Shown in pieces: positions 15,301-40,794 of a stretch of 64,000 nt of DNA (its first letter is position 1; the number at the start of each line of letters is the position of its first letter). Made by a program: the position numbers and the translations under genes. The notes beneath the pieces were generated by a model, which did not search any database, was not told where the DNA came from, and was given only the letters and a program-made list of their open reading frames with translations. Source of the stretch: Saccostrea cucullata (Eukaryota); assembly GCF_032062105.1 (NCBI RefSeq), contig NW_026929674.1, forward strand, positions 62,001 to 126,000, in the 5' to 3' direction.

Positions 15301-15893
15301 AAATATGGTCAATAGGTTGCTGACGGTTATTTAAAAAAAATTAAATTTTAGTCACTGGAAAGTAATAAAATTAAAATTGTCTGAAGATATTTTATGATCA
15401 TTAGTTTGTTAAATGGTCAGGTTTTGGTAATATCATTAACGTTTTAAATGGCTTCATCAAATTTAATGACACTATTACGTCGATGCAATAATAATAATGA
15501 ACGAACGAGTGACACAAATAAAATGTTAAATACAGGAATTTAATTGTCCTTGAAAAAAAATATCAGCTTTGCGATTTTCTATACAGAATCGAAAACACTT
15601 GTTAACCTGTTTGTTGTAAGAACCACTAGCCATGTTTTGGACGATGTTACAACATGAGTTCTCAGATTTCCTGTGGCTTTTATCTCTCCAGTGGTGCAGG
15701 TCAGATGTTAATTTCACAATTAAAGGTAAGTAATGGTTTGTGATAGTAAGTTTCTTCTTTTTGACATGTGATTGATGACAGGTTTGGTCTCGTGAAGCAA
15801 TAAGGCTTCTTAAATTTATTCAACGTCCGGGACAAAACATTTTACTTTTAATTAAAATTTAGGTGTTAGGCGTAGTAGGTTTATGGACAGAAA

Positions 15894-16288
15894 ATGAACA
15901 GATGTTTGTTGGTCCTTTTGCTGACTTTGTACCATGCAGAAGGGTGGATCTCGGACACCAGACGGAGTAGACTAGGGAGTGTAGAATCTGATGGAAGAAC
16001 AAGTAAAGGGGGCCTAATGGCAAACTTTGAACTGAAACTGAAAGGCACAGAAGAGATAAATGGAGGCACAGTGACTAGATTCGAAGTGAAGATCAATGAC
16101 AGGGCAACCAAAACATTGGAAGGAACTGAGGATTTCAGACTGAATTTAAAGGATAACAAAGAAGAGAAGAGAAAATCAAAGTCCGGTTTCAGATTAGAAT
16201 CAAATGACAACAATGTTACGGGGAAAAGAACAGTGGACGATTTCAAACTAGACTTGGATGATAAAGACCACAAGCATGAACATAAAGA
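15894..16288 (+). CDS. Distal first coding exon (signal peptide plus charged repeat segment), probably of the EMI-domain membrane protein gene
   Basis: MNRCLLVLLLTLYHAEG signal peptide. Acceptor tttag at 15862, upstream non-coding donor AAAG/gtaagt at 15725, donor GA/gtaagt at 16288. Phase 2 matches exon 39535. Confidence 0.75.
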
Positions 16289-17535
16289 GTAAGTATGCGA
16301 CGTAATGTACTGCTGGTAGAACCATTTGTTATATGAACATTCCAAGGTTACATGCTCCATAGAAAAATAAGGTTAATGTGTTTTATAAAGAATTAATTGT
16401 TTACACATAACTGGATACTTTCTAAACTTACTATATGATTACTTTTACTATATAATGTTTCTTCATGGAGATTGCCTTTTGTGACTTTTTAAATTATATT
16501 TTGAGGGTTATTAAGAATGCATTGTCGAAATTAAACACATTTAATTTGGACAGATATGTTTCAAAAATTGAAACATTTTTTGGAAGAAGGGCATTGACCC
16601 TCCTTTCCATCATTACATTTCGGACAAAATTTCATAATTTTAATTTTTGACTGTAAATGACAGTCAATACTGCACTCATTTTTACAATTCTGAATATATT
16701 CCATGTCAAGTCTTTCTTAAAAACTAGTCCCATATGTTCATTTAAAAAGTAGTCACGAAATAAAATGTTACTTTGTTTTAGATATATGAGTAATATATTA
16801 TCTACTATACATAAACCAATATGCATTAATTATGAGTTTGGTTTCCTGATCATGAAGTGAAACATTTGATTTAAGAAATGATTTACTTGAATTAGAGAAC
16901 TGCCACTGAAAGGAAGTAAGAAAAACCCATCAATCTTTCTGTTTAGCATTTAGGAATTTTCTTAATTGATACCTGGAAGGAAAATGACATCAGTTACATT
17001 TTTTGATACTTAAAAAGGTTAAAAAACGGAAATCTCTGTTTGTTTTCATATCAAAATAGACTCATCTTTTGTAAACGTTATTGTTGTTTCTTTTTTTTAT
17101 TAATATCAAATCAGGATGCAAGTATTAAAAATAAAAGTTTTGTTTTCGTGTCAATTATATGCGTATAGTAATGAAGAAATTAAATTGTTGTATGGAGAAC
17201 AAAACACTTTATTGTATTGCCCTTCTGTAATATATAAATGCCCCTGAAAATTCATTCAAATCAGAAAAAGAAAAATACCAATTAAGATAATTTGTTTGAA
17301 CAATACAGAAAATTCTCTATATAATAATTTCAAAGAAGCAAATTTTCAAATTTGATTTTTTGTGAATCTTTTAACCAGTTTACCAGTTTATTAACATCTC
17401 TTTGGTTGTTATTTAACAACACAGAGATCAATACATATTAATATAACATATATACATACATGCGTGAGCATAACATATAACATATATACAAAGTGTGTTT
17501 ATAATCAAGTATTTCCATATATGTTTACATTGATG

Positions 17536-20500
17536 TTAACCTGGAGGTTTGACTCTCTCGTTTAAAATTTTAATAAAAGAACAGAGTTTACTCAATAGTC
17601 CAACATTTTTTGAAGAAAACAATTCATTAAATTTGATAATATTTGGTCTTGTAAAATAATATTTCGGAATGTACAATTTTCTTTCATCTTTTAATTTTTC
17701 ACAACATAAAATATAGTGGAATTCATCACCAAGATCATTTTTGCATAAAAGACAAATTCTATTAATTCTTTCAATACCTTCCCATCTTCCTGTTTCAATG
17801 GGTAATTTATGGTTTGCTGTTCTAAATCTAGCTAAAATTTGTTTCTTATAATTATTTAACCTGCTATCTACATAAAATTGACATCCAAAGTGTAAATTTG
17901 TAAATAGATTATATGTCACACCTTTTGAAGAATCTTTACAGGTTGAATTCCAATTTTGTTGAAACTGATCTAATAATTTTTGCTTCAAACTTTTAATAAG
18001 CCAATTTCTATTAAATAATTGATTCTGGTTCCAAATATTACTATATCCACAATTGTCTAAAATTGATTTCAAATTCTTTAACCATTTAGATTCATGTCCA
18101 TTATCAAATTTTGCACGAAGTAATTTATACATTAAACAACAATATTTTGATTGTTTTCCATATAAAATTTTTGACCAGTATGCAATAATTCTTGTTTTGA
18201 TATGTATACTTAAAGGTACTCTACCTAATTCACCATAGATCATAAAATTTGGAGTACTTGGTTTTAAATGAAAGAGCATTTTACAAAATTTTAAATGTAC
18301 TCTTTCTATCATTTCAACATTACCATAACCCCACACTTCACAACCATACAATAAAATTGGAATTACAATCTTGTCGAACAAATACAATTGGTCATAAAGA
18401 GAAAGATGTAATTGGTTACCCTTTTTTAAAATACCATACATAGCTTTCGTTGCTCTTTCAGTAGCATATTGTTTTGTCTTAATAAATGAGCCTGTTGTTG
18501 AGAATATAATTCCTAGATATTTGAAATGTTTAACAATTTCAATTTCTTTGTTATTGTAATAAAAAACTTTATGCGGTATACGTCCCTTTGAAAAAATCAT
18601 TATTTTTGTTTTTTCTATATTAACTTCTAGCTTCCATTTTTCACAATACAATAAAAAAACTGTGCAACTGATTCTGTAAATCTTCGGTTGATTCCGATAG
18701 TAAAACTGTATCATCTGCATACAAAATAATCAGCATTTTTAACAAGACACCAAGTTCTTTTTCAATCTCATTTGATATTGTTGAGATACCAATATTGTTA
18801 TGTGCAATTAAAAAAGATTCTACATCATTCAGAAATAAAGCAAATAAAAAGGGCGATAAGTTTTCCCCTTGTCGTACCCCTATTTTGCATGGAAAATATT
18901 CAGTAACCATATCATTAACAGCTATTCTGGATTTACTCTCAGAGTACATTTTCACTATAACTTCAAAACATTTTCCGGTAATATTATTTTGAATGAGTTT
19001 TTGCCACAGTCCTATTCTCCATACATTGTCAAAAGCAGCCTTAAAATCTATAAATGCACAATATAGTTTCTTTTTCAATAAAAAGGATAATTCGATTAGC
19101 GATTGTAAAGTAAAAATGTTATCTATTGTAGAATAATTTGATCTGAAACCCCCTTGATTTTCATTTAGTATATCATATTGCTCAGCATAATTATTTAATC
19201 GTTTAGCTAAGATGGATGTGAATAATTTACCCATGCAACTTAATAAAGTTATAGGTCTATAGTTTTCAGGGTCATTGTCGTTCCCCTTATTTTTATAAAT
19301 AGGCAATATATCACCAACAATCCAAGCTTCAGGTAAAATTGCTGAGTTAAAAACAATATTAAATAACATAACATATACCGGTAACATAATACTAGCAGAG
19401 GATTTTATGTATTCATTATAAATTTCATCACTTCCAGAACTTTTGTTATTTTTAATATTTTCAATTGCGTGTTTTATCTCATCTTCAGTTATCACTGAGT
19501 CTAGTTCTTCATTAGTATATGTATTTCTAATCTCATTTGATAGTGGTTCGTCATTATTTACATCACCATTATTGACGTTTTTAAAGTAATTGTAAAATTC
19601 ATCAATATTAATATCACATTTTTTGTTGTTCGGCCTTTTATTAATTATTTTCCAATAACTTTTTGGATCGTTACTTCTCAGTTTTCTAATTTTTTTCATA
19701 ATTAAATTTCTATGTTTTTTCATACTTTTATCCATAGTATTTTTATATTTACGTTCATTGATACGTACTTCTTCTTTTAAGATGCTTGAACGATATTTCC
19801 TAAACATTCGTTTTGATTTCCTATATTTTTTTTGTGCTATTTTGCATTCTTTATCAAACCATTCTTTTCTTTTCTGTGGTAGTTTATTGTGAGTTTGGCG
19901 AGCATTAAATATTCCAAAAGTTGTGCGTGCCGAGTCAAGCAGTAGACCTACAGTGTCTGAAAAGATTTCATTAACCTGATTTTTATTTAAATCATTGATA
20001 TCAATATTGCTCAAGTCATATTTTAATTTTCTTAGAACATTTAAATCAATATTTTGACAAAATTCTTCTGTTTTTTCATTATCCCATGGTTTTATCTTCT
20101 GACATGAAAAATTATTTTTATTTGTCTTACTTTCTTCTTTAGTTTGGTAGTTATCATTTGAGATATATGAGTTCACACTTATTTCACAAAGTAGTGGCAT
20201 ATGGATATCAGAATATAACCTATTGAATTCTAGTACAGAAAAATTTTGCACATGTTTCAAAAATTCAACACTACATATACAATAATCGACCACACTTGAT
20301 TTTGTTGTAGTAAATTTACCCTCTTCTAATCTTCCATTCAATAAATACATATTGTTATTTTTACAAAAATTTAATAAATTGTTTCCAAAATTATTCTTTG
20401 TTTTATCTAATGATTTTCGTTTCCTTGGTACATTTATCTTTTGTAATTCAAATACATTTGAGAGACAGTCTAAACTGGGATCATCTAACTCAAATTCTTG

Positions 20501-21049
20501 ATTTGATATGTCATCTGGTTCAATAAAATCATCTCTATCAGAAGTTCTTGCATTAAAATCTCCAATTAGGCATATATGGCTAAATTCACTCTGTAAATTC
20601 AAAAATTCAAGTTCAATTTCTTCAAAAGCTTCCCTTGAACTATATATAGAACTTTCTGGTGGTATATAAACAACACCTAAAATCAAGTCTTTATCTGAAT
20701 TAATTAAAGAAGATTTTAATCTTAACCAGTGAACAAATTTACAATCTGTGTGAACGATAGTTACATAATCTTTGATAGATTTTTTGTATCCAATTACAAT
20801 ACCACCAGAACGTCTGTTTGAAAATCCGTGCCTATTTTTAGCATCAAACAAAAAATAATTGTGATCAATCGGTGTAGTATCATCAGTTTTTGTCTCTGTA
20901 AAACACAATATATCAAAGGAAGAGATAAATGTTGAAAATTCTGGATAATTTATGCGTCTACTTAAACCACAAACGTTTAATCCTAAGATTTTAAGTTTGC
21001 AATCAGTTCCAGTGGATGAATCGAGAGAGTCGGTTGGATCACTGTCCAC
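17536..21049 (-). CDS. LINE ORF2 (APE endonuclease plus reverse transcriptase), split by one frameshift at ~18653-18659
   Basis: EN motifs LNVCGL, FTET, VYIPP, GDFNART, SDIH. RT motifs NYRPITLL, FIDFKAAFD, GVRQGENLSPFLF, LYADD, FKYLGI. Removing one T from the T7 run (- strand) joins 18641-21049 to 17536-18720 (..LHSFLLYCEKW..). Confidence 0.92.
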
Positions 21050-21085
21050 TAAATTGTCACGTGGTAGATTTCCTCCTAGGTTATC

Positions 21086-22336
21086 CTACCTTTGACTTAC
21101 TGAGCCGCGTCTGTTGAATGGTCGAAATTCACGGGCCATTGGAGTTAGGCGCGGATCTACGTTGTGTGGTGCCGCTGGTGCGTTATATGGGTTTTCCTGA
21201 CCGAAATCTGTCGCCACGAATCGCTCGCCGTTGATATAGAGTTTATCCATAACCAGTTGCGCTTTGATGCCCTGTCGTTTAGCTTCTTTGTAATGCGGGT
21301 ATAATATTTTCCGGTTATCGTTTATTTCCTTGGGAAATTGCTCGAATACACTGAAATCTGCGTTGCCTTGATCGCCTCGTTCCCGAAGATCGGTGATCAC
21401 CGTGATTGCAGTTTTTCGGACCTTTTCACGATCCTTAAAGTTTACAAATTTTGCCACAACTGCCCGAGATTTTGCCTCTTGCTTCCGGCCCATACGATGT
21501 ACTCGATGAAATGGAATTTCATCCGTTATTCCGAGTTTTTCAGAAATGAACGCTTTTAGTGCCTGCTCACATTGTTCTGATGTTTCATCTTTTGGTTCAT
21601 GAATTCCCACAAATATAAGGTTGTCACGCATGGACCTTGCTTGTAATTCATTTTGCTGGTCTTTTAGATCTAACATTTTTTTTGTCATAATAGTCATTTG
21701 TTTTCTAAGTGCCTCACTCTCTTTTTCTAAGTTCTCATGTATTTTTTTGGATCTCTTCATTTCTGCTACTATCTCTTTTGATGTTTCTTCATTCTCATCT
21801 AACTTTTCACTAGTGAATATAATGTTTTTTTCAATGTCTGACATTTTTGTTTTCAATTCAAGCACGTCAGTTGTGACAGTATTCATTGTTACTTCAAATT
21901 TGCTGATTCTAGATTCAATTTGATCAAGTTTATCCAATTTTTGGCAAACTTTGTCCAATGTTTTGGCCAAATTGTCTATTTTATTACCATAATCAATTGG
22001 CTGTAATCCACCCTGATATTGTTGTACCTGTTGTACAGGGTGAACAGGCGCTACAGGTGAGAAACTGTAATTCATTACCGGCAATTGAGACATTTGTGGT
22101 ATTTGGTATGTATTATTTTGATTGTTCTGCATACTCTGTTGATTGTTTATTGGAGTTGAGAATAACGGTTGCGAGATTCTTTGTGTGTCTACATTGTCTT
22201 GAGAAGTACTCATAACACTTACTTTTCTTTGTTGCGCTTCACTGCTCAAATCTGGGCCTTCTTTTCTTTTCTTCCCTTTCTTAGATTTATTTCCATTAGA
22301 ACCGCTGGATCCACTTCCAGATGTTTTAGGCCTCAT
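21086..22336 (-). CDS. LINE ORF1 protein (coiled coil plus L1-type RRM/CTD, 416 aa)
   Basis: Long heptad region followed by RSMRDNLIFVGI..FHRVHRMG..RAVVAKF...DREKV..VFEQFPKEI motifs typical of L1/Tnp_22-like ORF1. Confidence 0.88.
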   Translation of the reverse strand: MRPKTSGSGSSGSNGNKSKKGKKRKEGPDLSSEAQQRKVSVMSTSQDNVDTQRISQPLFSTPINNQQSMQNNQNNTYQIPQMSQLPVMNYSFSPVAPVHPVQQVQQYQGGLQPIDYGNKIDNLAKTLDKVCQKLDKLDQIESRISKFEVTMNTVTTDVLELKTKMSDIEKNIIFTSEKLDENEETSKEIVAEMKRSKKIHENLEKESEALRKQMTIMTKKMLDLKDQQNELQARSMRDNLIFVGIHEPKDETSEQCEQALKAFISEKLGITDEIPFHRVHRMGRKQEAKSRAVVAKFVNFKDREKVRKTAITVITDLRERGDQGNADFSVFEQFPKEINDNRKILYPHYKEAKRQGIKAQLVMDKLYINGERFVATDFGQENPYNAPAAPHNVDPRLTPMAREFRPFNRRGSVSQR

Positions 22337-22523
22337 AACACGCAGTTGAAATCATTCGGTAAATCCCCCAAAGTTTGTTAATTTTAAACTTAAGATATCT
22401 TATAGTCAGAGCTCGAAAAATCATGACTCTCATTCAGCTCACGCATGCGCAACCGAAATCTTAATATTACAATTGGTAAAATTAAGATTACTATTAATTA
22501 TCTATTGATTAAAATCTTGTCAT

Positions 22524-22594
22524 ATGTGGATCATACGAATTTCTGTCCTTGAACTTCTTGGCAGTTTGTCATTATTATATGGACTTTTAATAAG
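22524..22594 (+). CDS. Candidate alternative first exon encoding a signal-peptide-like segment (MWIIRISVLELLGSLSLLYGLLI)
   Basis: ATG at 22524, open hydrophobic frame, perfect donor AAG/gtaagt at 22594, phase 2, compatible with exon 39535. Confidence 0.45.
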
Positions 22595-24157
22595 GTAAGT
22601 CAATAATTAAATCATATGACTCATTTTCATTTAACTTGACAATAAATGATTCATAACAAATGATATTCGATTAAACATGTTGATAATCATTCATATGGTG
22701 GAAATCATAAACTTTATACGTATGTCAATACTTACTTCTGTGTATTCTTAATCAATGGTATATAATACCAATTTGACGTAAAACAATATGATAGCAGAAT
22801 CCTTTTTCTATACCCATTACATTGACTTTCCTTGGGTATGTTCCTGTAATTATGTATACAGTAACTGTTTATACCCCGTTTATGAGTTTTGAAGTATACC
22901 ATAAGATGTGGTATTGGTTAAAAAATGATGAAGATTGTAAAATAAGAAGATGTTAACAGCGCATACATCAAGGACTACTGAAGTTTCCATAGAAGGGATC
23001 GGGTGCCTAGTAGGAGAAAGTTTCCCATGTGGACCGATTACACCTGACCGCCGTAAGCTCTATGTATTGATCAGAAATATCGCAATGCTAATTGAAGAAT
23101 TTTTGAGGACAGATTTACTACTCACACCTATCTCTTTTTTAGTGTAAGGTTTTGAATTTAAGGAAATATTATGACATGCGAGTTATTCAATTGGATTCAA
23201 CTTCAATGTAATCACAACGGATGTCATGATCACAGGCGTCTGGATGAACAATATTAAACTGTACATATACACTAGTTTGTTAGTCGTCCAAAATTTAGAA
23301 AATTTCATGTTTAATCAAACAGAGAAAAACGCATATCAACATATTTTTAAACACGCTCGGAATTTGTCATTGGTTTGTCAATCAATGCCCTGTTCACACG
23401 GAGAATTTAATTCGAATTAAACGTAAATTTACTGCGAATTAGCTTCGCTTAGCGTTCACACGGAGAATTTAATGCGAATTAGTTTACTTCGCATTAGTTT
23501 ACTGCGCATTAAATTACTTCGCATTAGCTCCGTGTGAACGCAAAGCGAAGCTAATTCGAATTAAATTTTGGCGCATGCGTAAGGGTAGAAATGGGTCAAA
23601 TACCACCTGCCAGTGGTCAGATATGGGTACCAATACATTTTCTGGGTAAGAAATGAAGAAAATCATGCTACTCTCTCCAAAAAATGCAATGATTTTATGT
23701 ATTTTTCAATATGTAGGCTACATGTATATCTCAGCCTACCTTATATTTTCTGCACCTTTACTCTATTTTCAAAGGTTTATTCCATGCACATATAGGCCTA
23801 TTTAATTATTTTGATTATAAAAAAAAAAGTAAAAATAAAACTGAGATAAAACAGTATTGTCATCAGGTATAAAGGGATATTATGTCTATACCCTTTCTAA
23901 TGTTTTGACATAAAGTAATGCTGTAATAAAAAGACACACAAATGATTTATCAACGCATTAAATCAGACACAAAAGCCCCCCCCCCTTAAAGAAAAATGAC
24001 CTCCGATAATTTGCTTAAGATTCACAGAGAAATCTACCATGGAGATTCTTTTCATTGATAAAATTATGTCGTGAATTTTGGAGCCGTATGACGTCAAAAA
24101 ATATTATTTTGCGCAATATGCATAAAAATTACGTCATAAAGTGCACTTGGCATAATA

Positions 24158-27108
24158 ATGGCGAAGGAGACGCGAGGAATAAACTGGAACAGCGAGGAAA
24201 TTATTGAACTCATTGAAAGTTGGGCGTCAGAAGAAATTTCTAATGATTTTTCCGGAGTTTATAGAAACAAGCATGTCTATGAAAAAATTGCCATTGGTAT
24301 GTAGATATTAAATTTATTTATCTTAATTAACTTGATAGATCTACATAAATTTATATCTATATTCTATCATTTAATTCAATAGTACGTTTAGCCTATACCC
24401 CCTTCCAAAATCAAAATGTTTTATGTTTATACCGATTAGATATTGAAATTTAGTAGTGCAGTTTGTAGTACATGTATACGTAAGCCCCATTGGGCCAAGA
24501 AGCCCCTGAGTTTTCGTGTATTTTAATGTGAGAAAAACAAGGCACAATATATATAATAGTGGTATTAGTATTTGTTAGCTATGTACCAAATCATGACATC
24601 ATTAATGCTAGTATCATAGTTTGAATGAAGGGGGCCCAGAGGGCGAATGCCAAAGTATTGTACCAAAGTATGGCATTATTATTCATATCATAGTTTGACA
24701 ATTTCAGGGGGGTACCCCCGCCCCACCCCCATCGCCCCCCTTAAATTTGCCAGTGGTAATAGCATTTCATTGTAAATATTAATGCAAAAAGCAATATATT
24801 ATAGGCTACGGTAAAAATATTTGGATGTACAGCATAACAGATAACTGATTTTGTTTAGCTTTGAGAGGGAAAGGAATTGACAGGACCTGGGAATCCTGTC
24901 GAACCAAAATTAAAGGACTAAGGCAGGCATACTTGAGGGCAAAGCTCCATAATAATACTTCAGGCCAGTCCAGAAGTCGTTTTGTCTATTTTGACAAGCT
25001 GGACGAATTCCTTGGATCGAAACCTCTCACAGAACCATCCGTCCTTGTCGACACTACTGAGAACGTGGAAGAAAAAGTTGCAGTCGAAACAAATAATGGT
25101 GAGACAGAGTAGCAAGTTTATCTGAATTCATTTTTCACAATTTTTTTAAATAGTAAATTTAGAAATAATTATATATGTACATGTATTTTCAAGACCAGAA
25201 GAAGGACACAGCAGAGAAAGCCACCGTCAAAGTGGAGAAGGACGAAGACAATGGAAAGAAAGACGGAGAGAATGGAGGTATTATTATTATTTGATGTCAC
25301 TGGCAAATCAAACTTTGATGGAGTTTAAATACTAGTATAGTACATATATCTATCAACAAATAAGACAGTTTTACCATACATGCATGTCCAGAGCAATATG
25401 AAACTCAGAAATGGTCCGGGATGGGGGTGGGGGTGAAACCGTTTGAAACATGAATTAACTGACAAAACTGAAAAATTATTGCTAGATAGCATTTTCTCAA
25501 ATGAAATCTTACTTATAACCTTATATTCAGAACCTTATATTTATATTTACTATGTTTTATGACATTAGAGCATTCAAGGTCGGAAATCAAGCAGAAAAAT
25601 TTATCGAAGGAAAAAACAAGAAAGAGAACAATGGATGAAAGCCTTAGTAAGTCTCCCTCCCCCATTAATTATGAATAATATATATATATATATATATATG
25701 CATTATTTAGAGAACAAGACGGGTTCTGTATCGTAGATACCCCCAAATTTGTATCTACGATACAGAACCTGTCGAGTTCTCTAAATGATTTGTGACACGA
25801 TCAATCAAAAATAGCTCCGCCCACTTTATAAATTTGCAGCATCCAAACTTCCGTCTGTAGATGAGGCCCCGACGGGGAGTGCGCATCCGCAGTATATATA
25901 TTTCCATGGAAAACGTAAAATTCGGTCAGATTAGTTTTGACAATTTAACGGGGTAGGCGTAATCAAGTGATAGTCAGTCTTAAATGGAGATTTATCATAA
26001 TTTATTTCAGGATTCTTAAAATCCCGGTTTACCTAGATTAACAAAAACAGGATTTACAAAAAGTTCTTCGATGGACTTGGATGTCACTCGGTCACGGATT
26101 TTTTATTTTCAAATTGAATTGCGACATAAACAACGAAATGAAAAAGACGTGTGGCTGTCGTCAGCGAGAAGGACTTTAGAAAATAAAAACGCGGAAAAAA
26201 TGGACTTGAATGATTTTGCACGAGGAGAGTGGATGTTTTCGTTTTCCGTTATTGCGAATTTTCCGTTTCGTTAAGGATGGAAATACGTACAGAGGATGTT
26301 TTCCGTTATTGCGAATTTTCCTTTTACTTTGGATCGAAATTACGTACAGATTCTGTGTGGAATAAGTTTTTAAAAAGTGATTGAGAAATTTTGACATTTT
26401 ACATTGTCAGGAAAATACCGGGTATTTCTCCAAAATTTATAATAGGAAAACATCAACATTTACTATTTGAACGTGCTTTTGCTAAATTGAATCAGATTTA
26501 TTTTTAGACCGTGCTGTATTTTAGATACAGAATAGTTGGCAAATACAATACTGTATATACAGGGCTAATACAGAACGGAAAGTAGCTCCGGCCACCACAG
26601 TCCCGTTCTGTATTGCTAATACAGAACAGTAAACTTCAAAGAAAATCGCCGCTATCGCGTCACAAATACAACTTAACAATGTTCATATAAAGTAAATGGT
26701 TATTTTAGTTAGGTCAAAAATATATACGAAGCCAGATATCAAATTTCATGTTTTGTATATTATCCTTCCTAAAAAGGGATTTCATTCTGAAATTATATCA
26801 TTAAAATTATAGATAACTTCGTACATGCCCTTGTTGACATGGAGGAGAGGCAGACTAAATACCAATTTGATCAGGAAGAGAAGAGAAGGAGGCTGGAGGA
26901 CGAAGCCGAACAAAGACGAATGGAAAGTGAGCGGCAGTTCCAACTACAACTCTATCAAATGCAGGCACAGATGCAGATGCAGATGGCCTCAATATTTATG
27001 GGCACTCCAGCTCCCGGACCAGCACAAGCTCCAGGGTCAGCAGGAGACAACGAATCAAATATCCCTATACAGGAAGCTCTCTATCACGCTGACTATTTCG
27101 ATCTATGA
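24158..27108 (+). CDS. Harbinger Myb/SANT-like (trihelix) DNA-binding protein, 5 exons, ~278 aa
   Basis: Exons 24158-24296, 24859-25098, 25194-25277, 25569-25646, 26813-27108; all GT-AG, all phase 1, open. Sequence W..EEIIELIESW...RNKHVYEKIA..LR..G..RTWESCRTKIKGLRQAY...FVYFDKLDEFLG, with a C-terminal coiled coil. Confidence 0.88.
24480..24754. mobile_element. Decayed relative of the 6198-6541 MITE, in Myb-gene intron 1
   Basis: gggggcccagagggcgaa and tttgacaatttcagggggg...cccccttaaatttgccagtg match the 3' part of the 6198 element. Confidence 0.55.
25705..26667. mobile_element. Unclassified hairpin-ended element in Myb-gene intron 4, next to a (TA)n tract
   Basis: 36-bp-arm hairpin 25705-25786 (33/36 paired, 10-nt loop). 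Inverted pair ATTTGTGACACGAT (25788) / ATCGCGTCACAAAT (26654). Recurring TACAGAAC motif at both ends. Confidence 0.6.
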
Positions 27109-27500: not shown

Positions 27501-27521
27501 TAGAGAACGTTATTTAGTTTT

Positions 27522-27725: not shown

Positions 27726-29028
27726 CAATCGCATCATCTCGGGTCAGAAAGACAACCTCCAATGTTTTAACATTGACGCAAAAATTTTAAACAATATAGA
27801 ATTGCTTCATATTTAGTAAAGTATTTGAAAGACAGAGTTAAAAGACAATTCTATGGTATAAATGTACATTTGTAGGTATTTAAGACCGCGGAACATTAAC
27901 TGGCAAGATTGGAAATATGCAGATTAATTCATTTCTATCTGTAACAATCAAAACATTCAGTGATATACAATGAAATGGGCGGGTACAATTCGACGCGGAC
28001 GGCCGAAAAAAACATTGGATTGAAATTTTCTTTTGAAATTTTTACAATCCACCTCAGCTACACTAGAAGGCACATTACTATTGATTGACCAAGAAGACAA
28101 ATTTAATTTCGGTATAGTTTGAAAATAATATATCAATCAGAATTTTCTGTCCAGTATTTTAAAGTTGAGCTCCAAACTCCTCAGATAAGATGTTTCCTTC
28201 CATTTCTTTCAAAGTTTGTGAAAAAGGAAACGGGATGGGGTGGGGTGGTGTGTGTGTGGGGGGGGGGGGGGTCATGGCGCGTATTCAATGTTGTTTTCCA
28301 CTTGTTGGAAAGGCCCTAGAAGTGGTGACTGGAGAACGACTCATTTATTATAAACAAACAAACAAAAAAAAAAAAACAAACAAAAACAAAAACAAAAAAA
28401 AAGAAGAGAAAAAGAAACGAAAAATGAGGATACGAGGGAATTAATTAATTCGACAGAATTCTGCATTCACATAAAAGTGAAAAGTTTATTGATTTATTGA
28501 TTAAGAAATAAAACTATGCATTTGGATATTGTAGGTGTTCAAATAGGTTGATTTATATTTCAGTATTTTAAAAGTTTTATTTTTATATTTGCATAACTCT
28601 TGATAGATTAGAAAATTAGAAAGCATTAATCATTCATTTTAATTATATTTGTCATTTTTCATTAAAGATATATTTGCCATTTCATTTAACATCAATCTAA
28701 GGCCACAACTATGTTTTCTTCCCTCGGACCTGCGCGATCACATTTTATAAAACTATATATAAATAATATTATTTTAAATTTCCCAAAACGGGAAAATCAT
28801 ATGCTAATTTCTGTTCTATTTCCGCTCTATTTTCGAAATTTAAATCTGCTTACTTGTATACAAGTCAGAAAAAAGTATATAAAACAAATATAATTGTCCG
28901 TGCATTTTTTTTTTCATGTTCTGACCATATATCAACCAACAGCAATTAAAAAAGTAGTAAGTTATAAGAAATATACTATATTGCAATATTTGTCTTTGAT
29001 TTTTTTTTTCACAGCCTTAAATTAAGAA

Positions 29029-30279
29029 TTACAAATTTGCGGCAATAGCCTCTCTGATAATGTTAGCATTTTGTGGGGCGTTTCCCAAGCATCTGTTTTG
29101 GTCCATGTTAATAGTCCTCGTCCATTCGTCAATCGCCTGTACGCTGTCTAGCTCGCTCAAATTATTTAGAACACAGCATGCTGTGACAACATCCACGAAA
29201 AAGGGAAGTTTCCCATCAAATCTTTTCGAAAGTTTTCTCCATCTAGATTTGAGTCTTCCAAAAGTATTTTCTATAACCATTCGTGCGCTTGAGTGTTTGA
29301 AATTGTATTGTGCTTGTACCGGATCAAGATTTCCTTTAAAAGGTGTCATAAGAGAATTTGACAACGGGTAAGCAGCGTCGCCAATGAGATGTAATGGTAC
29401 GTTTACAGTATCAATTAATAAAGAAAGTTGCGGTAAAAAAGTTGACATTTTTTTGCATATAGAGGAATGTTTGTATATTCTAGCATCATGAGCCTTTCCA
29501 GGCCAACCAATATATACGTCCAAAAATCTGTAGCGATGGTCTGAAACGGCCTGCATAACTATTGAATAGAAACCTTTCCGATTATAATAGTCATTTGGAT
29601 TTTCGGAAGGTGCCAAAATCTGAAAGTGAGTACCATCAATTGCGCCTATTGTTTGGGGAAAACCTCGGAAATTAAAACCATGTACAATATCGCTAGCTTC
29701 CTCCTCAGTTCTAGGGAATCTTATAACTTTTGAACACATGTTTTTCAAAGCAAATACCACATCATGGACGATTTTCCATACAGTCGATTTTCCACAGGCA
29801 AATGTTACTGCCAGAGAACGAAAATCAATCGGCGAACTCAGATACCACAAAGTGATTAAAATTTTTTTTTGCAGTGGAACCGCAGTTCGCATATTTGTGT
29901 CTTTCGATTTAACCGTGTCCAGTTCCTTGACCAAGTAATCAAACGTATATTTGTGTACCCTTATGTGGCTCTTAAATTCACTCTCCTTCCACGACAGAAA
30001 ATCCGTATACAGATCACTTTCCCTGTCAAACTTCCAAGTTGATCTTTTGAATTGTAATTGATTTCGCATATTCAATAAAGAACCAATAATCAAAAAAAAC
30101 AATCGTCTACGATGTCTGCGATTTTTCATGAGACGTTCCCACCTTGATTTTCTTCTTTGTTTCAGTCTAAGATATCTCTCTTTTCTTTGTCGATGTAGCA
30201 AATTATGATGACATTGTAAATTGACTTGGAAAAAACAGCGAAGGAAAAGGAAAAATTTGCATAGTGTTGCTTTCTCCAT
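29029..30279 (-). CDS. Harbinger DDE transposase (DDE_Tnp_4/HARBI1-like), 416 aa, intact
   Basis: GAIDGTH, YYNRKGFYSI.MQAVSD, GWPGKAHDARIY, LIGDAAYPL and ARMVIENTFGRLKSRW motifs; catalytic D/D/E all present. Confidence 0.95.
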   Translation of the reverse strand: MEKATLCKFFLFLRCFFQVNLQCHHNLLHRQRKERYLRLKQRRKSRWERLMKNRRHRRRLFFLIIGSLLNMRNQLQFKRSTWKFDRESDLYTDFLSWKESEFKSHIRVHKYTFDYLVKELDTVKSKDTNMRTAVPLQKKILITLWYLSSPIDFRSLAVTFACGKSTVWKIVHDVVFALKNMCSKVIRFPRTEEEASDIVHGFNFRGFPQTIGAIDGTHFQILAPSENPNDYYNRKGFYSIVMQAVSDHRYRFLDVYIGWPGKAHDARIYKHSSICKKMSTFLPQLSLLIDTVNVPLHLIGDAAYPLSNSLMTPFKGNLDPVQAQYNFKHSSARMVIENTFGRLKSRWRKLSKRFDGKLPFFVDVVTACCVLNNLSELDSVQAIDEWTRTINMDQNRCLGNAPQNANIIREAIAANL

Positions 30280-30837
30280 TTTGATAAATGTTCAAAAGGT
30301 GACGTAATTAATTTTAATGACGTCATAATACAATTAACGTCGTCAATTTTTTTACAATCTTGCTCTTCGTAACCTTGCCATCAACATAATTTTCTGAATA
30401 TTTTCTGAATATTATTATTTTTTATCGTTCAGTTTAAAAAATAAACTTGTATACTTTCAGTTAAAGATACATGCATACTTTGAACCAATTATTTACATGT
30501 GATGCGGCCTTTACGTATTTTCTGTTCTGAGCAGTTTCAATAAATTTTTGTGTTAGAAAAAATATAGCAATTTTAATATTGCTTTTACTAATTGGTTAAT
30601 ATCATTATTATTTCTTTTGTCTTAGCCATTGAATAATTTCTCGCACCTGCTTACCTGGAAATATTTACAAATTTAATGCGAATTAGTTTACTTCGCATTA
30701 ACGTCGTGTGAACGCTATTTAATTCGCATTAATTTAATTCGCATTAGTTTACTTCGCATTTACTTCGCATTAGTTTACTGCGAATTAAACTCTCCGTGTG
30801 AACAGGGCACAAATTTTTATTATCACAATGACACTTA

Positions 30838-31917
30838 TGCCCTGTTCACACGACGAGTTTAATTCGCAGTAAATTAATGCGAAGTAAACTAATGCCCTGT
30901 TCACACGGATAATTTAATTCGCAGTATATTAATGCGAAGTAAACTAATGCGAATCAAACTAATGCGAATTAAATTGCGTTCACACGACAGCTAATGCGAA
31001 GTAAACTAATGCGAATTAAAATTTTACTTCGACAGTCAGGCGTGAGGAAGGCTCTTATGACGTCATTTGCAAATCACGTCACCTTATGCAGAAAGAAATG
31101 CATTTGACAATATGTCACAGTGTCTGGAGACATATTTTAGTGATTAACACATTTTTTCTTAGTTTTTCACTCAAAAATAGCACAAGTACTTAAAGCTGAC
31201 CACCGACATGATGCATTTGACATAATTTTGCCATTACGCATGCCCCAAAATTTAATTCGAATTAGCTTCGCTTAGCGTTCACACGGAGCTAATGCGAAGT
31301 AATTTAATGCGCAGTAAACTAATGCGAAGTAAACTAATTCGCATTAAATTCTCCGTGTGAACGCTAAGCGAAGCTAATTCGCAGTAAACTTACGTTTAAT
31401 TCGAATTAAACTCCCCGTGTGAACAGGGCATAATGCGAATCAAATTAATGCGAATTAAATTGCGTTCACATGACGGCTAATGCGAAGTAAACTAATGCGA
31501 ATTATAATTTTTCTTCTACAGTCAGGTGTCAGTAAGTCTATTATGACGTCATTTATAAATCACGTCATGTATGCAGAGCCATCCTTTGATACATCATGTA
31601 GTGGCTATAGGTATTCATTGATTTTAGTAATTAACATACTTTCCCTCAATTTTTGAACCAAATATAGCACAAATACCTATATATAACCACCAACACGTGT
31701 CCTGTGACTTAATTCTAGCCTTACGCATGTGTCAAAATTTAATTCGAATTAGCTTCGCTTAGCGTTCACACGGAGCTAATGCGAAGTAATTTAATGCGCA
31801 GTAAATTAATTCGAATTAAAATAATTCGCATTAAATTCTCCGTGTGAACGCTAAGCGAAGCTAATTCGCAGTAACTTTACGTTTAATTCGAATTAAACTC
31901 TCCGTGTGAACAGGGCA
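30838..31917. mobile_element. Harbinger MITE (~539 bp, TSD TTA) interrupted by a second MITE
   Basis: TGCCCTGTTCACACG termini; TTA at 30835-37 and 31918-20. Opposite orientation to the autonomous element. Confidence 0.92.
30893..31430. mobile_element. Nested Harbinger MITE (538 bp, TSD TAA)
   Basis: Same termini; TAA at 30890-92 and 31431-33. The host MITE repeat (aac-TAA-tgcgaatc) resumes after it. Confidence 0.92.
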
Positions 31918-34760
31918 TTATTATTCCGTACATTGTTAATCAAAAAAGGAATGGCTTTGTATTTTCAAATTGTGAAATCAAGTAAAAGTTATACAAGTTA
32001 ATTAATTAACATTTATCAAAAATAAAAATTCTTTATTAATGAAGGTTTAATTATGATCGTGGTTATTTACCATGAATATCTTATGACAGCTACAACAAAA
32101 AAGTTGATATGAAATAAGGAAATGGTCATTCGTGTACACCACTCGGCCGGTTTAGTTGGACCTGTCCCTTCCTGGGACTATTTTACGATTTTTATACAAT
32201 TTCTAATAAAGACATGAATCGTTTTCGATCAAAGAAGGTTCTTATGAAGCGTGAATGATAAATAATAATATTGCCTTTGCTTTTTATCGTTAATGGTTGT
32301 CTGATGTTCATTAATCTTTATAAGTTTCATGCGCGTGACTTCTCCTAATTAAGGTTTGAGACTGGGGCTATGACAGAAGAGTTTAATTTTGATATTTATA
32401 ATTCAAACTGAAAATTTTACTTTTTTCCCTTAAATTTTTGTCTTTAAGTGTTATCTTAAAACATGTATATTTAGTTTTGATAAAAAGGAAGATTGATATT
32501 TACTGCCTTGATAATTTGTTATATGTAATGAATAAAGTTTCAAGGATATTGTACATTTCAAAATCATGCTCTGTCAAATTTGTTACTTTAAATGATAATT
32601 CTAGACTTGAATTCCAAACCTGATTTGAGAAAAACAATGTACTCACTTCCCTTTTTGTTATTTGTTTGTAGACATCCTTTCTGTAAATGTGTCAGATCTG
32701 TTTTTTTTTAAATAGAATTGGATGCTTGGCAACTAGAAAATAAGTAAAGCTACATAATGGTATATTACCAATTTGTTTTAGCAAAAAATCAGTAGATTTC
32801 GTATTGACAAAACAGTTTAAGCATGATTGCATCATATTTTTTATTAGAAATATCTTGATCAATATTCTACCATACATAATGCAAAATGCTTTTCCCCTAT
32901 ATTTTTGGAAATTCAATATAGCTTTGGTCCAATTTGATTCAAACTTAATCGAGGAACTTTTCATCTTTTTAATATTATCTCGAAATACGTGCGTCTGTCG
33001 AATCAAACTGGATTATATATATAGTATATGACCAGTGACAAAATTTGATATTTTGCGGCTGTTATCTATGATTAAATTATCGTAAGAAATGCAGAATTTT
33101 GTGATTTGCATTTTTTGGTAAAAGTTCTTTAAAATTTGCAAGTAAAACAACTTGCTTTGAGAGCAGAATATGTATACAAACCGTACAGTACCCTTCATAC
33201 AATTAACAATTTGCCCGAAGTTTTTGATAACAGACTTAACTTGCCAGATTTAATACAGATTTTTTTTCTTTTTTTTACATATATGGCACTATAAAATACT
33301 AATCGTTATTTACAGAGAAGATATTCGTTTCGGGTAAAATTTACATCATACACGTTAAAATTCAAAAAGAAACTCAGAATATATTTTTTTAACATTAAAA
33401 CTCGTTTTGTATCCTTCGTTTTAAGGAATACTGGTATCAGTAAATTAACCTTGTGATTGATTGCCAATTAATCACTTTCTTTAAGCATGAGAACGTTATA
33501 TGTTTTAAATCCACCGACAGATCATAGCCATGATCCGAAACCTGTAAACAGTCGTGTTATGTCTAAGCAAGTTTTTAGTGGTTTTAAATAAGAATTACAT
33601 GTTACCTAATGCATGCCTATGTTTCCGTAAACTTCCAGCTTCCAACGCAATAAGTCTAACGGTTTGTTAGAAACCCTCATTCAATGTCTAAAGTCTTACA
33701 CTTCAACTTCAAGGGAGAACAAATAATTCTTGTTAAACATATATAGTTTCAGTATTAACTTCACATTTGAATATGTATATTACATCGTTTGTTTGAAGAA
33801 TGATCACAAAGGCTACTATGTTTCTACAATAACTTTTTTAAAATTTTTTAACATAAAGCAGTACGATAAATATGTTTGGGTTTTTTAGTTTTTGTGGTAA
33901 ATTTGTGTCATTCTGCCAGAACTGACATTCTTGGAAGTATGCAAAGTCATCGATGACATCTTTCAGCGTTTTGAGCTGTAGTTGCTATGGGGTATATTTT
34001 AAGCATCAATACCTATTTGCCAACAATATTCATATATAAGCTATTTTTGTTCAGCGAAACAGACACTGGCTAAATAGTTACTCTAAGGTTGTAATCAGGA
34101 ATTTTATATTTTAAAATGTACTCATTCATATCTAAATGCTATAATTTGAAGTCAAAAATGAATGACGTTTTCAATACTGCTTTTTTTTCGTTTATCATAA
34201 ACTGATTAATAAGAAAAAGGTTTCTAGGGAAAAAAAACCTCAAAATGCAAGAATAGACGGAATGAACTTCAGTATTTGTTGCTAAAAATAGATATTGAAT
34301 AAATAGTAAGTTGTTTGACTGGTCATTGAATTAGGTTTTACAAACAATCGAACCTCGGTGCATAAAATTTGCCCTCTTTATGGTACGAAAGTAGTATAAA
34401 CTATATTGGACTGATAATGAAATAGTTATTAATATCATATTACATGCATATTATCAATACCAATGCCCACTCGTACAAAAACAAACGTATAAAACTTCCA
34501 TGTCGGAAACAATTCGACTGACGTAACCACTTTGCATGCCATGCACGTGCATATTGAAGTTTTTCTCACTTACACTTTTCCCCCTGCCCTTTCATTCTGA
34601 CAACGCACTGTTTTGGCTTGTCTTTGTTTGATGAATGTTTGCCATCAACCATTGCCCAGGGCGCTTCAGGTAGAACTTACTTATCATATTCGGAATGATC
34701 GTTGTGAAGAGAAAAGCATTTCATATTTAGGGAATATACACAGCTCATGGGCCGTTGAAG

Positions 34761-34849
34761 ATGGAGTTAGCACGGGCTATTATGTCTGTCCAAGTTCTAA
34801 TTTTCTTTGGAATTTTAGTTTTGGATTCATCTGCTCATCAAGGCCATGT
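34761..34849 (+). CDS. Proximal alternative first coding exon with signal peptide (MELARAIMSVQVLIFFGILVLDSSA/HQGH)
   Basis: Good ATG context (gaagATGG), h-region plus S-S-A cleavage site, donor GT/gtaagt at 34849, phase 2. Joins exon 39535 as HQGHV-HHAP. TATAAAA at 34488 upstream. Confidence 0.72.
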
Positions 34850-36193
34850 GTAAGTTGGGAACTTTTGAATTTTAGGGACTTTAACTTAAAATATAATTTC
34901 ATTTCGAAAATACACATAACATCACGTGTGTTTGGTGTGCCTTGCATATTATTTTCATACTATTATTTTCCTATTGAATTATATCTATTGAAAGTAAAAT
35001 ACTATTGTAAATAGTGGTTCCTATAATGTATTCCTAAACTAAATACCACTTTTCAATGTTCAGAAGGACTTTTAAGGTTTGTTATTTTCATATTAACACG
35101 AGTTACACATTTTACCATTTATTATAAATCTTAATTATTCAGGCGTGGTATTTTATGTTAATACATTTTCGAAATCATGCTTTGGTTCACCGATAAGTGC
35201 CTGCTTTAAAAATTGACATATATTTACTAATATCGGTTAATTTTTATGATTTCTCCTTAAATTCCTTTACTTTTAACACCTGTACAATTTTGGGATTATA
35301 GTAATGAAATCTAAATAACATTCAGATACAATAAGAATAATATTCTTTTTTCCAGAATTAAAGCTTTAAATCGTTTATTATGATGTAATTATTGTCATCT
35401 GTATATAACTATTTGTTTTGATTGACTAATTAGATCTTTACCTTAGGTAAAGGATGTAAACAAACAAAGGTTCAGGTCTCTGTCAGCTATTGATCTATCG
35501 ACATGTTGTACTTTTATTATTTTGTTGAAGTAGTACAAGGTGGCGTGTTAAGGGCCTTGCATTTTGTGTTATTTATGATTATGGAAACACTTTGAAAAGT
35601 TCATCGCTATGATCATTATAATTATAAATACCAGGTATACAATAAAAACATCAATAGTTTTTTTTTACTTGTGTACAAGCTTGTACAATAGACTCCGAAG
35701 ATAGTGGTATTTGGTTGAAGGAAATGATTTAAATAATAGGTCAAATCAATATCTGTTCGGCCAAATGGTTTTCTATTCAAGCTTAATTATAATTTTACTT
35801 ACTTCTTCATGTTTATTTCGTGTTAAAGATATAAGTAGCTTTCAACAAATATTCAAAAGCATGAATATTAAAAGATTTCAGTTTAAAAAAAATACCTTGT
35901 GTAAAATACCTTGTGTTATGCTCATGTTTGCTTTTAATTCAAGACCAAATACATTGTGTTGGTGAACTTGTTTGTACTAAAACAACTGTTAACGAGGACC
36001 TTACACTTACCATGTAAGCACGCTGTATACACGATATGTAGGACCTTACAAAACATGCCTTGTTGTTAGAGTCGTGTTCCTTGCCAGGGGGCTCTTTGCT
36101 GTGGCCATCAAAGTAATGCATATAGCTCCCAACAATAAACGCTTCTCTTCAAATATAACAAAACACACTTTTAGTGCAAAACTTATGTATATA

Positions 36194-37241
36194 CGAGGGT
36201 TGTCCCGTAAAATCGTGGACAAAGCGTTTTTCTCCAAAAGTAAAGGGCGCACTAAGCTGAAATTTTCAGTAAATGTTTATTCATCATATTTAAGTGAATC
36301 ATAATGTTTTTGATAATATATATTCAAAAATAAAGATTTTATTATGCTTGAATTCGCACAAGGTACGGTCCTACGGCGCACGGTAAAAATAGCAAGGTTA
36401 TATTAGAGAAGACACTAGAATTAATTCGTAATAAAAGTTTCTATATATAATATAAGGGTGAAAATTATCCTAATAAGATTCCTTAATCAATTCTGTCGTC
36501 TTTTGAAAGATTTCAAGGCATTTGGTTAATTTTTGGCAGTTTCCCGAGCATTCCAAATTGGAAAGTGGTAAACACATACACGAAAAATGGCGACTTTTGA
36601 TGACGTTACGGCGCACCGGAGAGCAGTTCAGATAGATTAGGATGTTGTAATGACGCCTTACGAGACTTAAAATGAATACAGAAGAACGAAAATATGAAAA
36701 ATATAACCAGATCTTTAGTATATAAATGAAATGAAAGTTTTCTTAGCGAAGTCTTATCCCCAGATAGTACAAAACATATGGACAGACTGCCATTGTAATA
36801 GCAAAGGACGCAGTCACTGTCGACCGTCGATGTGAGATTCTCTTTTCGTTGAATGATGGTGAGAATACTGTCCGTAACTTGCTAATAAATATTCAGAACA
36901 TCGCATTAGTGTGCCACATTGGTTCCTTATCTGGTTATAGACACTCACGTATGTAAATCAATAAAATTTCTAAATTTAAGTGGGGCTTATCCAACTTTAA
37001 GTTTAGCAAAGATGAAACGTGACGCTGTTTTAGACACTTTGACGTTATCATCCGTGCGCCGTAGGGCGATACAGTACATAACATAAAATATCATAATTTG
37101 ATTATTTATGCATATATCTATTTGAAATTTGCTATGTATATTCATAATATACGTACTAAAGAGTGGTGAAAATTTCAGAACTCAGTGATAATTATTTTTC
37201 AAACTAGCCAACTTGTCCACGATTTTACTGGACAACCCTCG
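36194..37241 (+). mobile_element. Internally deleted mariner element (1048 bp)
   Basis: 29-bp TIRs CGAGGGTTGTCC(C/A)GTAAAATCGTGGACAA with TA on both sides. Decayed N-terminal transposase remnants from ~36587 (..TRSLVYK..). Confidence 0.85.
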
Positions 37242-39534
37242 TATAATGTTCTTTTATTATCTTATTGCAGAGAAGGCAAATCCAGATGTCAAACATGCTC
37301 TGATATGCCCACCCTCGCAATGGTTAATTTGACCAATACAGCTTGTCTTCGGCTACCATGAACTTCGTTTGATTATCAATTACAAAACTGAGCTGAATGT
37401 AAAAATATGAGAAACATTTCTTTTTAAACACTTATTATTATTTTGATTAACAAGCCGTGACTGAAACATATAATTTGGTGACGTAATATATATACTTCAT
37501 AAAATTGAATTACCATCAAATTGTCCAACATATCAGTTAGCCTCTGCATATGAGATACAGTCAAAATAACATATAAAGCTTTGGTTATATTAATGACGAA
37601 CTAAAAGTTTGTGTAAAATAATTCTGATCTACCTTTTCTTCGAAGAAAAATAAGCTGATAAAGGTCCAGGTTTTTACTTACGTAATAATAAATACCCTGT
37701 AAGTCAGGATTGACGGGAGATTGTTCCATTTTTATAGGAGCATTCTAATCTTTCAAAAGCTTTCGAACAAATAAGCAGTTTCTGATAACTTCGAAATGTC
37801 ATTAGATTAGTAAGGGATATACTGAATGAGAATTTCGATTATGTTTGTGTTTAATTATACAAGCTCACAACATTATCCATTTGAATGATAATGAGTTTTC
37901 TCAGAAACTATAAAAATTATGAAATAATGAAAGATAAAGATTTATGGTATATAATTTTTGCACTCTAAAAAACAGTGTAGACTTTATTTAATTTTCTATC
38001 TTTTATAATGAATATTAAGTTGAAATAAATAATTAAAATTCCTTTTTCAAGGTCAATAATTTTGTGTTTTATAATTATATATTCATATTATCAGAATACT
38101 AATATATATCTAAACGACCTTCGTGACATGTAGTCGTATTTTAACTACAATTTTTATCATAACTTGAAGTGTAACTATGAAAACAAATTAGAACTTCAAT
38201 CTTTTATTTCAAGATTTTAAATCATTTCAGTGGCTTAAAGTGAAATAAGTTCTAAACCAAAATCAAAAAAATCAATACAAGCAAAAGCGGAAGAAGATGC
38301 TTTAACATGATACGTTGACAACATTATCACCAGTGTCAACAATAAAAACATAGTACAGCCGTTAGAATCCTTACGCCCTCGGGCCGGTCACGTCTGTCTA
38401 ATTAATTTCCTCGCTAGCTTTATAACTGTATTACGCTGTATCTGTACGTTAAGTGTCACTTAGTAGAACAATGAGTTCCTATTTAACATCGGTCTACATT
38501 GTGTATTATGTTTTTCTTTTTCTTGTTTTTTATAACATAAACAAGCTCAATTTTTCAATGTTGAGGAACAAATCCGCAATAAAACTTTATAAATTTTACT
38601 AAATTTTATTTTGCAACAACACGTCTTTTGTTATTCCTCTGTTTTCTAGAAGGAATGTGTATGTTTTCTTATACTTAACGTAGAGGGTATTCTGATCATA
38701 ATAACATTCCCCTGTCTTTTATTTTGTGAAATTTATAAAAGGAAGATAAATCCTACAACATTTTTTCAATCACGTGCTCTTCCATTTATTTTCATTTCAC
38801 CCATATCAATTGCCCATAGGCGGCAATATTAATAGATGTAACCATTGCTATATAATTCCCAGTATTTCATCATTCATACTAATTTAAGAATTCAAAATCG
38901 TTCGTCTTTCATTACTTATTTGCAATCAGTTTACACGCAATACTAATTTAAGTTTTACATAATTAAGTGTTTTAAACATTTCTTTTTAGAATATGCATTT
39001 TAACAAATTTCAAAGTCCATGAAGACCCACGTATTTATTCCCTAAATGGTTGTCAAAAATTTCAACTGATCATAAATCACAAAAGTTGCCTGTCATTTCC
39101 CCTGTATACAGTTGTATGTGCTGGGCGATATGTCATTGATCTGCCATTGATCATTGACTTTATATCTGATCACTACACATGTTTTACTGAACTGAGAAGA
39201 TCAAAAAATCAAATATTAAATGAAAAGATTTTAAAAGAGAAAGCCAGATTGTTGACAGTAGGATCCGATCAATGTGCCATGCTAATGTTTTAAGTTTTCT
39301 GATATTCCATCCATCACTAATAAGGTTCATTTCTATTTATTCTATGCTGTTGGATTCTACATTTCGTGAGATCTTTTTACTTTTGCACGTCCCTTCGTTT
39401 TAAGGACTAAAATTATTATTACTTACTTTATACTGGATAGCTACCAATCATTTCTATTTCTTTGGGTTCTTTTTTCTTATATTAATCTGACGTTTTGAGT
39501 TTCTTGCAATGTTTTCATCTTGTCTTTCTTCCAG

Positions 39535-40744
39535 TCACCACGCCCCTACAAACCCCTCTCAGTCTGCCCCTCGGCCGTACCAGACAGGGACAGAGGAACA
39601 GAAATGTATGGTGATCGTCAGGAGAACCTTCCTGGAGAAGGAGATGGTCATCTACCCGTGCTTTCGACCCATCAGAGGGGTCACCCCTGTCTCAGCCCAC
39701 CAAAGGTAACAACGGGGATAACGTCTGCTGGACAAAAAACGAGGGAAAATAATTAACAGTGCATGTGGTTATTGTTATTATTCTTTATAGAAAGGCATAA
39801 GTAAATATGTGTTTTATTACTATTGTTTTATGCAATTCTGTTGTTTACATCAAAATATGGCATTAATTGCCTCTAAATGCTCGTATGGGGTCTTCATATA
39901 TCATTGCAATAGCCTTGAAATGGTCTATAAACCAATGACTAATATTCCTTAATGTCTGTACATAATCAATAGTAAAAGGGTAAAGCTCTTCTGAAGGATT
40001 AGTCACTTTTTCTTAGAGGTTTACCTCAGTAAGTCATTAATCTGTGACAGGTATTATCCTAGGTTATTAATACACACTTGAGGCACATTTCCAATCATTA
40101 TCAAAACGGCTTAGATGAATATATATGAAGGGGATAAAACTCATATCATGTACAGATGTTTAGTATATCCTTATACCTTTTTCCATAGGTAGAATAATTA
40201 TCCTTACTATATATAGTGGCATATATCAAAGGCATAGTTATGGAGACTTTGATTTGCTCTTCAGAGATGTTCATTTCCTTGCTGATATTGCCTTTAAAAT
40301 TCAAAGCACTTAAATGCCAACTTTGTTGCAGCTTGTTTTCAAAGTCATGGCTCCATTCTTTGCTTCAATATAATATATTTCTTTTTCTTTCATTTATAAA
40401 GAATGATTTTTAATTTAATGGTATAAGAGAAATTGTCATCTTTTAACATATAGCTATTGCCCAAATGAAGCATACATCAAGCACTCAATATCTGAAGTTG
40501 ATGGTGTAATACACCCTACTACGTGTCCTGCACAGATGTTTATGTTACTCAAAATGTCCCCTGACGATTATATGTGTATTATATCATAATTGACTTGATT
40601 TATTGATATCTTACAGCTCACTAGGTATGGTGTGTAGAGGCTACACCACTATTCCCAGCACTAAATACCTCCGGATGTCCATTTGTTGTCCGGGATGGTA
40701 CTCAGACCAGCAGGGACGCTGTACAATGAGTGAGTGTCTTTCAA

Positions 40745-40794
<50 letters not shown>

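Follow-up and report, generated by a model that had tools for sequence, protein, structure and literature searches.

We conclude, with a probability of about 0.8, that the gene LOC134281746 of the oyster Saccostrea cucullata has two alternative first coding exons, here called A and C, each of which is spliced to the same exon beginning at 39535, that the two are likely to have separate promoters, and that a third candidate between them, B, is likely due to chance. Positions are those of the window, the whole 64,000-nucleotide stretch analysed (contig NW_026929674.1 of assembly GCF_032062105.1, positions 62,001 to 126,000, forward strand). Both spliced products are identical to annotated proteins, and reads from a related oyster carry both joins. 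The initial annotation of this DNA, made from the sequence, had described an array of three signal-peptide first exons with separate promoters feeding one EMI-domain membrane protein. Alternative signal-peptide exons and a common body hold for A and C, which are in RefSeq in four oysters and have junction reads. B does not share this support, and only two mutually unrelated exons are left of the proposed array.

The last coding exon in the window matches LOC134281746 at 100%, and the constant body of the gene comprises seven exons on the + strand, from 39535 to 46787 (Table 1). All three candidate stretches are as first described: each begins with ATG, has the given translation, is of phase 2 at its GTAAGT donor and continues in frame into 39535. 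The coding part is 395 nt in A (15894-16288), 71 nt in B and 89 nt in C (34761-34849). Translation of exon A and the body gives RefSeq isoform X1 (XP_062620160.1, 860 aa) residue for residue, and exon C and the body give isoform X2 (XP_062620161.1, 758 aa) in the same way. The X1/X2 pair, with orthologous N-termini, is annotated in all four oyster species retrieved, including S. echinata, Crassostrea gigas and C. angulata (orthologs LOC133185541, LOC105347694 and LOC128182720). Conservation in other oysters is found for A and C, and none of the annotated isoforms retrieved for the four oysters starts with B. Orthologs are present not only in oysters but in mussels, scallops and an ark clam, and also in unionids, Solemya and limpets. 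Among the isoforms retrieved, those of Mytilus, scallop and Patella differ internally, and the complete ones all have a single, C-type N-terminus. Both first exons are thus already in public annotation, and their use is ordinary alternative-start use, not an exon array.

RefSeq labels the gene and its orthologs as uncharacterised, and the names retrieved mention neither the 18-residue repeats of exon A nor the exchange of the N-terminal histidine described below. In the main texts of open papers, we found no paper on LOC105347694, K1QQ72 or six further accessions, and nothing relevant on alternative first exons in oysters, EMI in molluscs or CCPG. Supplementary tables of shell or mantle proteomes, outside that scope, may list the gene. 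A metagenome scan recovered three short contigs (L001-L003) of another oyster-like genome, none of which extends to any first exon; in L003 the common exon begins in the same phase as the exon at 39535.

Reads were aligned to positions 32000-40750, which hold exon C and two common exons, with A and B outside, in four of the 24 runs listed; no matching run listed is recorded as RNA, and the raw-read runs were chosen by species label. The joint 34849>39535 (GT..AG) is present in all three raw-read runs, with 21, 6 and 8 reads (X6, X7 and X8). Loose ends before 39535 come from 27 reads of run X7 (agreement 0.98) and from one contig of contig set X1 (depth 483.5), and over 30 letters their consensus agrees with the end of A at 27, with that of C at 10 and with that of B at 5. 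The A and C joins are both present within the single run X7. Of the junctions that the initial annotation offered as a check, the one from C was thus seen directly and the one from A through loose ends, and none from B (22594>39535) was seen among the loose ends listed at 39535 for these runs, which are of an oyster that possibly has no LINE (long interspersed nuclear element) insertion next to B. In these samples A is apparently the more abundant form, since C makes up 21/61, 6/39 and 8/24 of the reads at 39544 in the three runs; one contig set has the A form only.

Exon A is likely the first coding exon, with a short non-coding exon ahead of it. Judged from the sequence, it is likely not the first exon of the transcript, because an acceptor sits 31 nt upstream of its ATG and a consensus donor follows 15725. 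Its product is predicted to be a 17-residue signal peptide followed by 114 charged residues, and a crude (-3,-1) rule places a single cleavage site at the same position (residue 17 or 18) in all four X1 proteins. Most of what follows the signal peptide is a module of five tandem repeats that was absent from the initial annotation; its charge is balanced (25 K/R, 23 D/E). Autocorrelation of the peptide peaks at lags 18 and 36, higher than in all 2000 shuffles for each of the two Saccostrea proteins, and the DNA has peaks at 54 and 108. In C. gigas, 1.1% of shuffles are as high. S. cucullata and S. echinata each have five 18-residue units, and Crassostrea has three. The exon A peptide is conserved in S. 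echinata at 96 of 129 positions and in C. gigas at 39 of 88 (22 of 31 in the core).

Among the mollusc annotations examined, exon A is known in oysters only. Searches with its peptide gave no match, but they cover cluster representatives only and did not return the oyster X1 proteins themselves; they are blind because the X1 proteins are cluster members and not representatives. The module has no Pfam match at the cut-off, and in Atlas there was no usable feature match, only structure rows below threshold. The AlphaFold model of the full-length protein has 615 of 860 residues at pLDDT <50, the repeats included; of these, only the first two units are modelled as a hairpin, at low confidence.

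Exon C is predicted to encode a 25-residue signal peptide followed by HQGH, which amounts to four mature residues only. A cleavage site that would leave histidine as the first mature residue (His1) is present in 10 of 12 C-type proteins by the same crude rule, and is missing from those of Tegillarca and Solemya. We infer that C is the ancestral, mollusc-wide start, because the mussel, ark clam, scallop, unionid and limpet orthologs start alike. We rejected two further arguments made for the array. The initial annotation had pointed to His-rich exon ends that run into the common exon; however, the peptide end of A has no His in S. echinata or in Crassostrea X1, and the His after the junction is part of the common exon. 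It had also taken the shared phase 2 as support, although no exon of another phase could be joined to 39535 in frame.

Separate promoters for A and C, ~19 kb apart, are likely, if thinly supported. Because five molecules of run X6 end at 34716 and positions 32000-34627 are empty in that run except for traces in the first bin, exon C seems to have its own transcription start near 34716. Among the rows listed, nothing is joined to C from upstream, and position 34731 has neither a joint nor a loose end. These data also bear on a different arrangement, in which a single promoter upstream of A would produce a shared non-coding first exon that is spliced to either A (15862) or C (34730), making the two mutually exclusive first coding exons. 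A clear donor/acceptor pair does lie upstream of A, and the AG acceptor 30 nt before the ATG of C is used by the C. gigas model K1QQ72. The five molecules nevertheless end upstream of the 34730 acceptor, and the rows listed hold nothing that enters C at 34731. We consider a single promoter unlikely.

Candidate B lies just past the 5' end of a minus-strand LINE, ~70 nt beyond a candidate end that is set by a 6-bp repeat only, and its ATG is 188 nt from that of ORF1, on the opposite strand. We rejected the idea that B is LINE coding sequence, since it lies past the start of ORF1. B has the lowest hydrophobicity of the three (2.03, compared with 2.75 for A and 3.40 for C), a Glu within its hydrophobic core and no purine at -3. 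We simulated 150 introns with an order-3 Markov model of the intron and counted those with at least one phase-2, ATG-started, hydrophobic candidate (cut-off 2.0, just below the value of B); a B-like candidate arose in 12% with GTAAGT donors and in 37% with GT[AG]AG donors. The real intron holds equally good look-alikes at 19782-19888 and 29060-29367, both of phase 2 and antisense within transposon ORFs, and a further one, of phase 1 and with GTAAGT, at 31480-31531. A phase-2 stretch from ATG to GTAAGT is weak evidence of an exon in A+T-rich DNA, and B is likely a chance stretch beside a transposon. It could instead be a young, low-level third first exon driven by an antisense promoter in the 5' end of the LINE, comparable to human L1 antisense/ORF0 chimeras. 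Its perfect AAG/GTAAGT donor, its phase and its position opposite ORF1 would fit, and the related oyster that was sampled may lack the insertion. Human L1 is reported to have promoter activity in the antisense direction, and the splice donors of its ORF0 can be fused to genes nearby (PMC10760644). However, B is in no annotation retrieved, the loose-end consensus of run X7 is that of A, with room for about one B read, and its weak signal-like features are of a kind that chance supplies. We regard a LINE-driven exon as quite improbable.

Clustered protocadherin and UGT1A arrays contain many duplicated, paralogous variable exons, which account for most of the recognition part of the protein and are spliced to constant exons. 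LOC134281746 is like them in that alternative 5' exons of the same phase are spliced to one constant body, and exon duplication that diversifies recognition might be imagined here too. However, only two exons are supported rather than many paralogs, their signal regions are identical at 3 of 27 residues, self-BLAST finds no DNA similarity between them, and C adds only four mature residues. Since A and C are unrelated at the level of sequence, they are not paralogs, and the gene is a twin-start gene and not a duplicated variable-exon array; we give the latter almost no chance.

Several points weigh against these conclusions. The reads are from a related oyster whose exons are ~93-95% identical to those of the window (the two common exons have 9 differences in 171 letters and 8 in 112). 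The evidence for a promoter at C is five molecules from one, apparently unstranded, run; in exon C there is also a possible acceptor, 34730, across which the old C. gigas model K1QQ72 continues. B was tested through loose ends only, and 276 further loose-end rows, any of X6 and X8 at 39535 included, stand outside those listed. The cleavage sites come from the crude rule rather than SignalP, and several proteins offer additional candidate sites. The oyster-only status of A rests on the annotations of other molluscs, the searches with its peptide being blind, and the AlphaFold model of its repeats is unreliable.

A design of this kind is known from cell-surface protein genes of the IgLON family: Lsamp, Ntm and Opcml are described as having twin promoters and two first exons, each with a signal peptide, in front of one constant body, and their processed proteins as having identical N-termini (PMC5288359). 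LOC134281746, likewise a gene for a cell-surface protein, places either of two first coding exons, both predicted to encode a signal peptide, in front of one body. In contrast to the IgLON proteins, the mature N-termini are predicted to differ here, A adding 114 residues. The IgLON products are Ig/GPI proteins, whereas ours is EMI-like and transmembrane, and twin promoters are demonstrated there and only probable here.

EMI-domain proteins include EMILIN and multimerin, and proteins that combine EMI with EGF, such as EGFL7, MEGF10 and the stabilins. The oyster protein is like these in having one N-terminal domain with six invariant cysteines, a CC pair and two long beta-strands, and in the EGF domains that stand behind this domain in the limpet ortholog. 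It is unlike them in that the rest of the protein is dissimilar to the EMILIN, EGFL7, MEGF10 and stabilin families and that the domain has no match to the Pfam EMI profile (none of 10 whole orthologs at E<=1, none of 7 isolated domains at E<=10 and none of 11 further proteins). Because of this, the domain is EMI-like and is not filed as an EMI member; of the EMI domain that the initial annotation had proposed, the general features remain and the family assignment does not. The domain has 70 residues, with the six cysteines and CCPG invariant in seven of seven orthologs, an invariant Thr seven residues after the first Cys, and the CC pair in the C-terminal half, as in EMI. The Thr is a mere candidate for the Ser/Thr O-fucose site, known from MMRN1, that EMI domains conserve in their N-terminal half. 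It occurs in a single copy and is the first confidently folded domain of both isoforms, standing in X1 behind the 114-residue extension. A model predicted from seven sequences (mean pLDDT 88, pTM 0.48) has long beta-strands at residues 7-25 and 44-64, probably paired in antiparallel fashion.

Fold searches gave no clear match for the EMI-like domain: Foldseek found nothing at E<=0.001, and VIA had a best Z of 2.9, with TGFBI 43-102 at Z 2.3 (rmsd 3.6, 42 aligned). When a profile of the domain was run against 1.84 billion proteins, 12 were found; those that carry the motif and have a name are orthologs from molluscs. The nearest Atlas cluster is a STAB2 fragment (0.84), which is a lead only, and neither alignment had a meaningful match among PDB sequences. 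The EMI domain is described as having six conserved cysteines and no crystal structure available (PMC11990869) and a CC pair in its C-terminal half (bioRxiv 10.64898/2026.05.13.724420); invariant cysteines, CC and two long beta-strands are EMI features according to the two together.

The products of X1 and X2 would both be type I membrane proteins that share the EMI-like domain, linker, helical cysteine domain, stalk and tail. The six-cysteine helical domain has no clear fold match, its best hits being common helical bundles (best Z 6.7). In the limpet ortholog (Patella vulgata LOC126811680), EGF domains lie between the EMI-like domain and the stalk, and the bivalve proteins have none. The cytoplasmic tail around YTIGVPPPVYEV, encoded within 46246-46787, hardly varies between oysters, unionids and limpets, and its conservation far exceeds that of the ectodomain. 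PPxY motifs are known to be bound by WW domains.

Table 1. Positions of the gene's exons and of other features of the window.
Feature	Position	Strand	Remarks
Candidate short non-coding exon upstream of A	15680-15725	+	consensus donor; start position tentative; predicted from sequence
Exon A	15863-16288, ATG 15894	+	isoform X1 first coding exon; acceptor AG 15861-15862
Five tandem 54-nt / 18-residue repeats in exon A	16008-16277	+	core F-x-[LV]-x-x
Candidate B	22524-22594	+	ATG-to-donor stretch, likely chance; unsupported as exon
Exon C	34716-34849, ATG 34761	+	isoform X2 first exon
First common exon	39535-39705	+	first half of EMI-like domain; acceptor TTCCAG
Common exon	40617-40729	+	second half of EMI-like domain (CCPGW)
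Common exon	44324-45148	+	Pro/Gln/Met-rich linker, mostly disordered in prediction
Common exon	45290-45422	+	six-cysteine helical domain, part 1
Common exon	45564-45697	+	six-cysteine helical domain, part 2
Common exon	45859-46128	+	His/Asp-rich stalk
Last coding exon	46246-46787	+	predicted transmembrane helix, Cys cluster, conserved cytoplasmic tail with PPPVYEV
Non-LTR retrotransposon (LINE) in intron	17371-22456	-	Pfam RVT_1 1e-27, Exo_endo_phos; ends approximate
LINE ORFs	ORF1 22351-21086; ORF2 endonuclease/RT 21085-18641 and 18729-17536	-	ORF1 open
Harbinger-like DNA transposon region in intron	23384-31921	-	Pfam DDE_Tnp_4 5e-36; transposase ORF 30291-29029, 420 codons, open
Local duplication blocks	1-760, 1678-2599, 5744-6197, 6542-6897, 7331-9561		97-99% identity

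Of the 19 kb between A and C, ~13.5 kb is transposon (~5 kb of LINE and ~8.5 kb of Harbinger region). The LINE is near full-length, with ORF2 split over two frames near 18700. Its ends were set by eye at a weak 6-bp candidate target-site duplication (17365-17370 / 22457-22462), and a 33-nt palindrome (22457-22489) adjoins its 5' end. The inverted repeats of the Harbinger-like region (23385-23662 and 31154-31431/31649-31919) are built of 15-nt units, and the right end is duplicated; related ends are also found at 7625-7744 and 13185-13304. Between C and the first common exon, 36196-37241 is a non-autonomous DNA element with terminal inverted repeats, which draws most of the aligned RNA reads, with loose ends from many other loci. 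Introns hold tandem arrays of 166-nt units (40955-42184) and 86-nt units (62179-62746). Positions 1-9561 and 10412-15119 form a mosaic local duplication at 97-99% identity, with 31-nt satellite arrays, which could be a recent event or the assembly of two haplotypes. A neighbouring gene in convergent orientation has exons at 54202-60560 on the - strand; they encode TPR repeats (Pfam TPR) and resemble the C-terminus of a TMTC-family protein.

We postulate that A and C would each supply their own cleavable signal peptide. The C form, presumably ancestral, would leave a His at the mature N-terminus, and A was probably gained in oysters upstream of C. Exon A would then have grown by tandem duplication of the 54-nt unit, to three copies in Crassostrea and five in Saccostrea, so that in the A form a charged extension of 114 residues, likely of beta-strand repeats, would replace His1.

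In its present form the finding is of minor importance, because genes with two alternative signal-peptide exons are common and RefSeq already lists both isoforms in four oysters. The remaining interest is in the protein itself, an uncharacterised, mollusc-wide, EMI-like membrane protein with a conserved cytoplasmic tail, and in an oyster-only start exon with a repeat module for which no relative was found. We speculate, with considerable doubt, that the promoter in use determines whether the ectodomain is tipped by a metal-binding His1 (C) or by a self-stacking, charged beta-repeat module (A), for example in the deposition of shell or cement matrix, with an exon added in oysters whose repeat number is still expanding. 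If the two N-termini do bind differently, this would be a neat and datable case of a new exon altering a surface protein.

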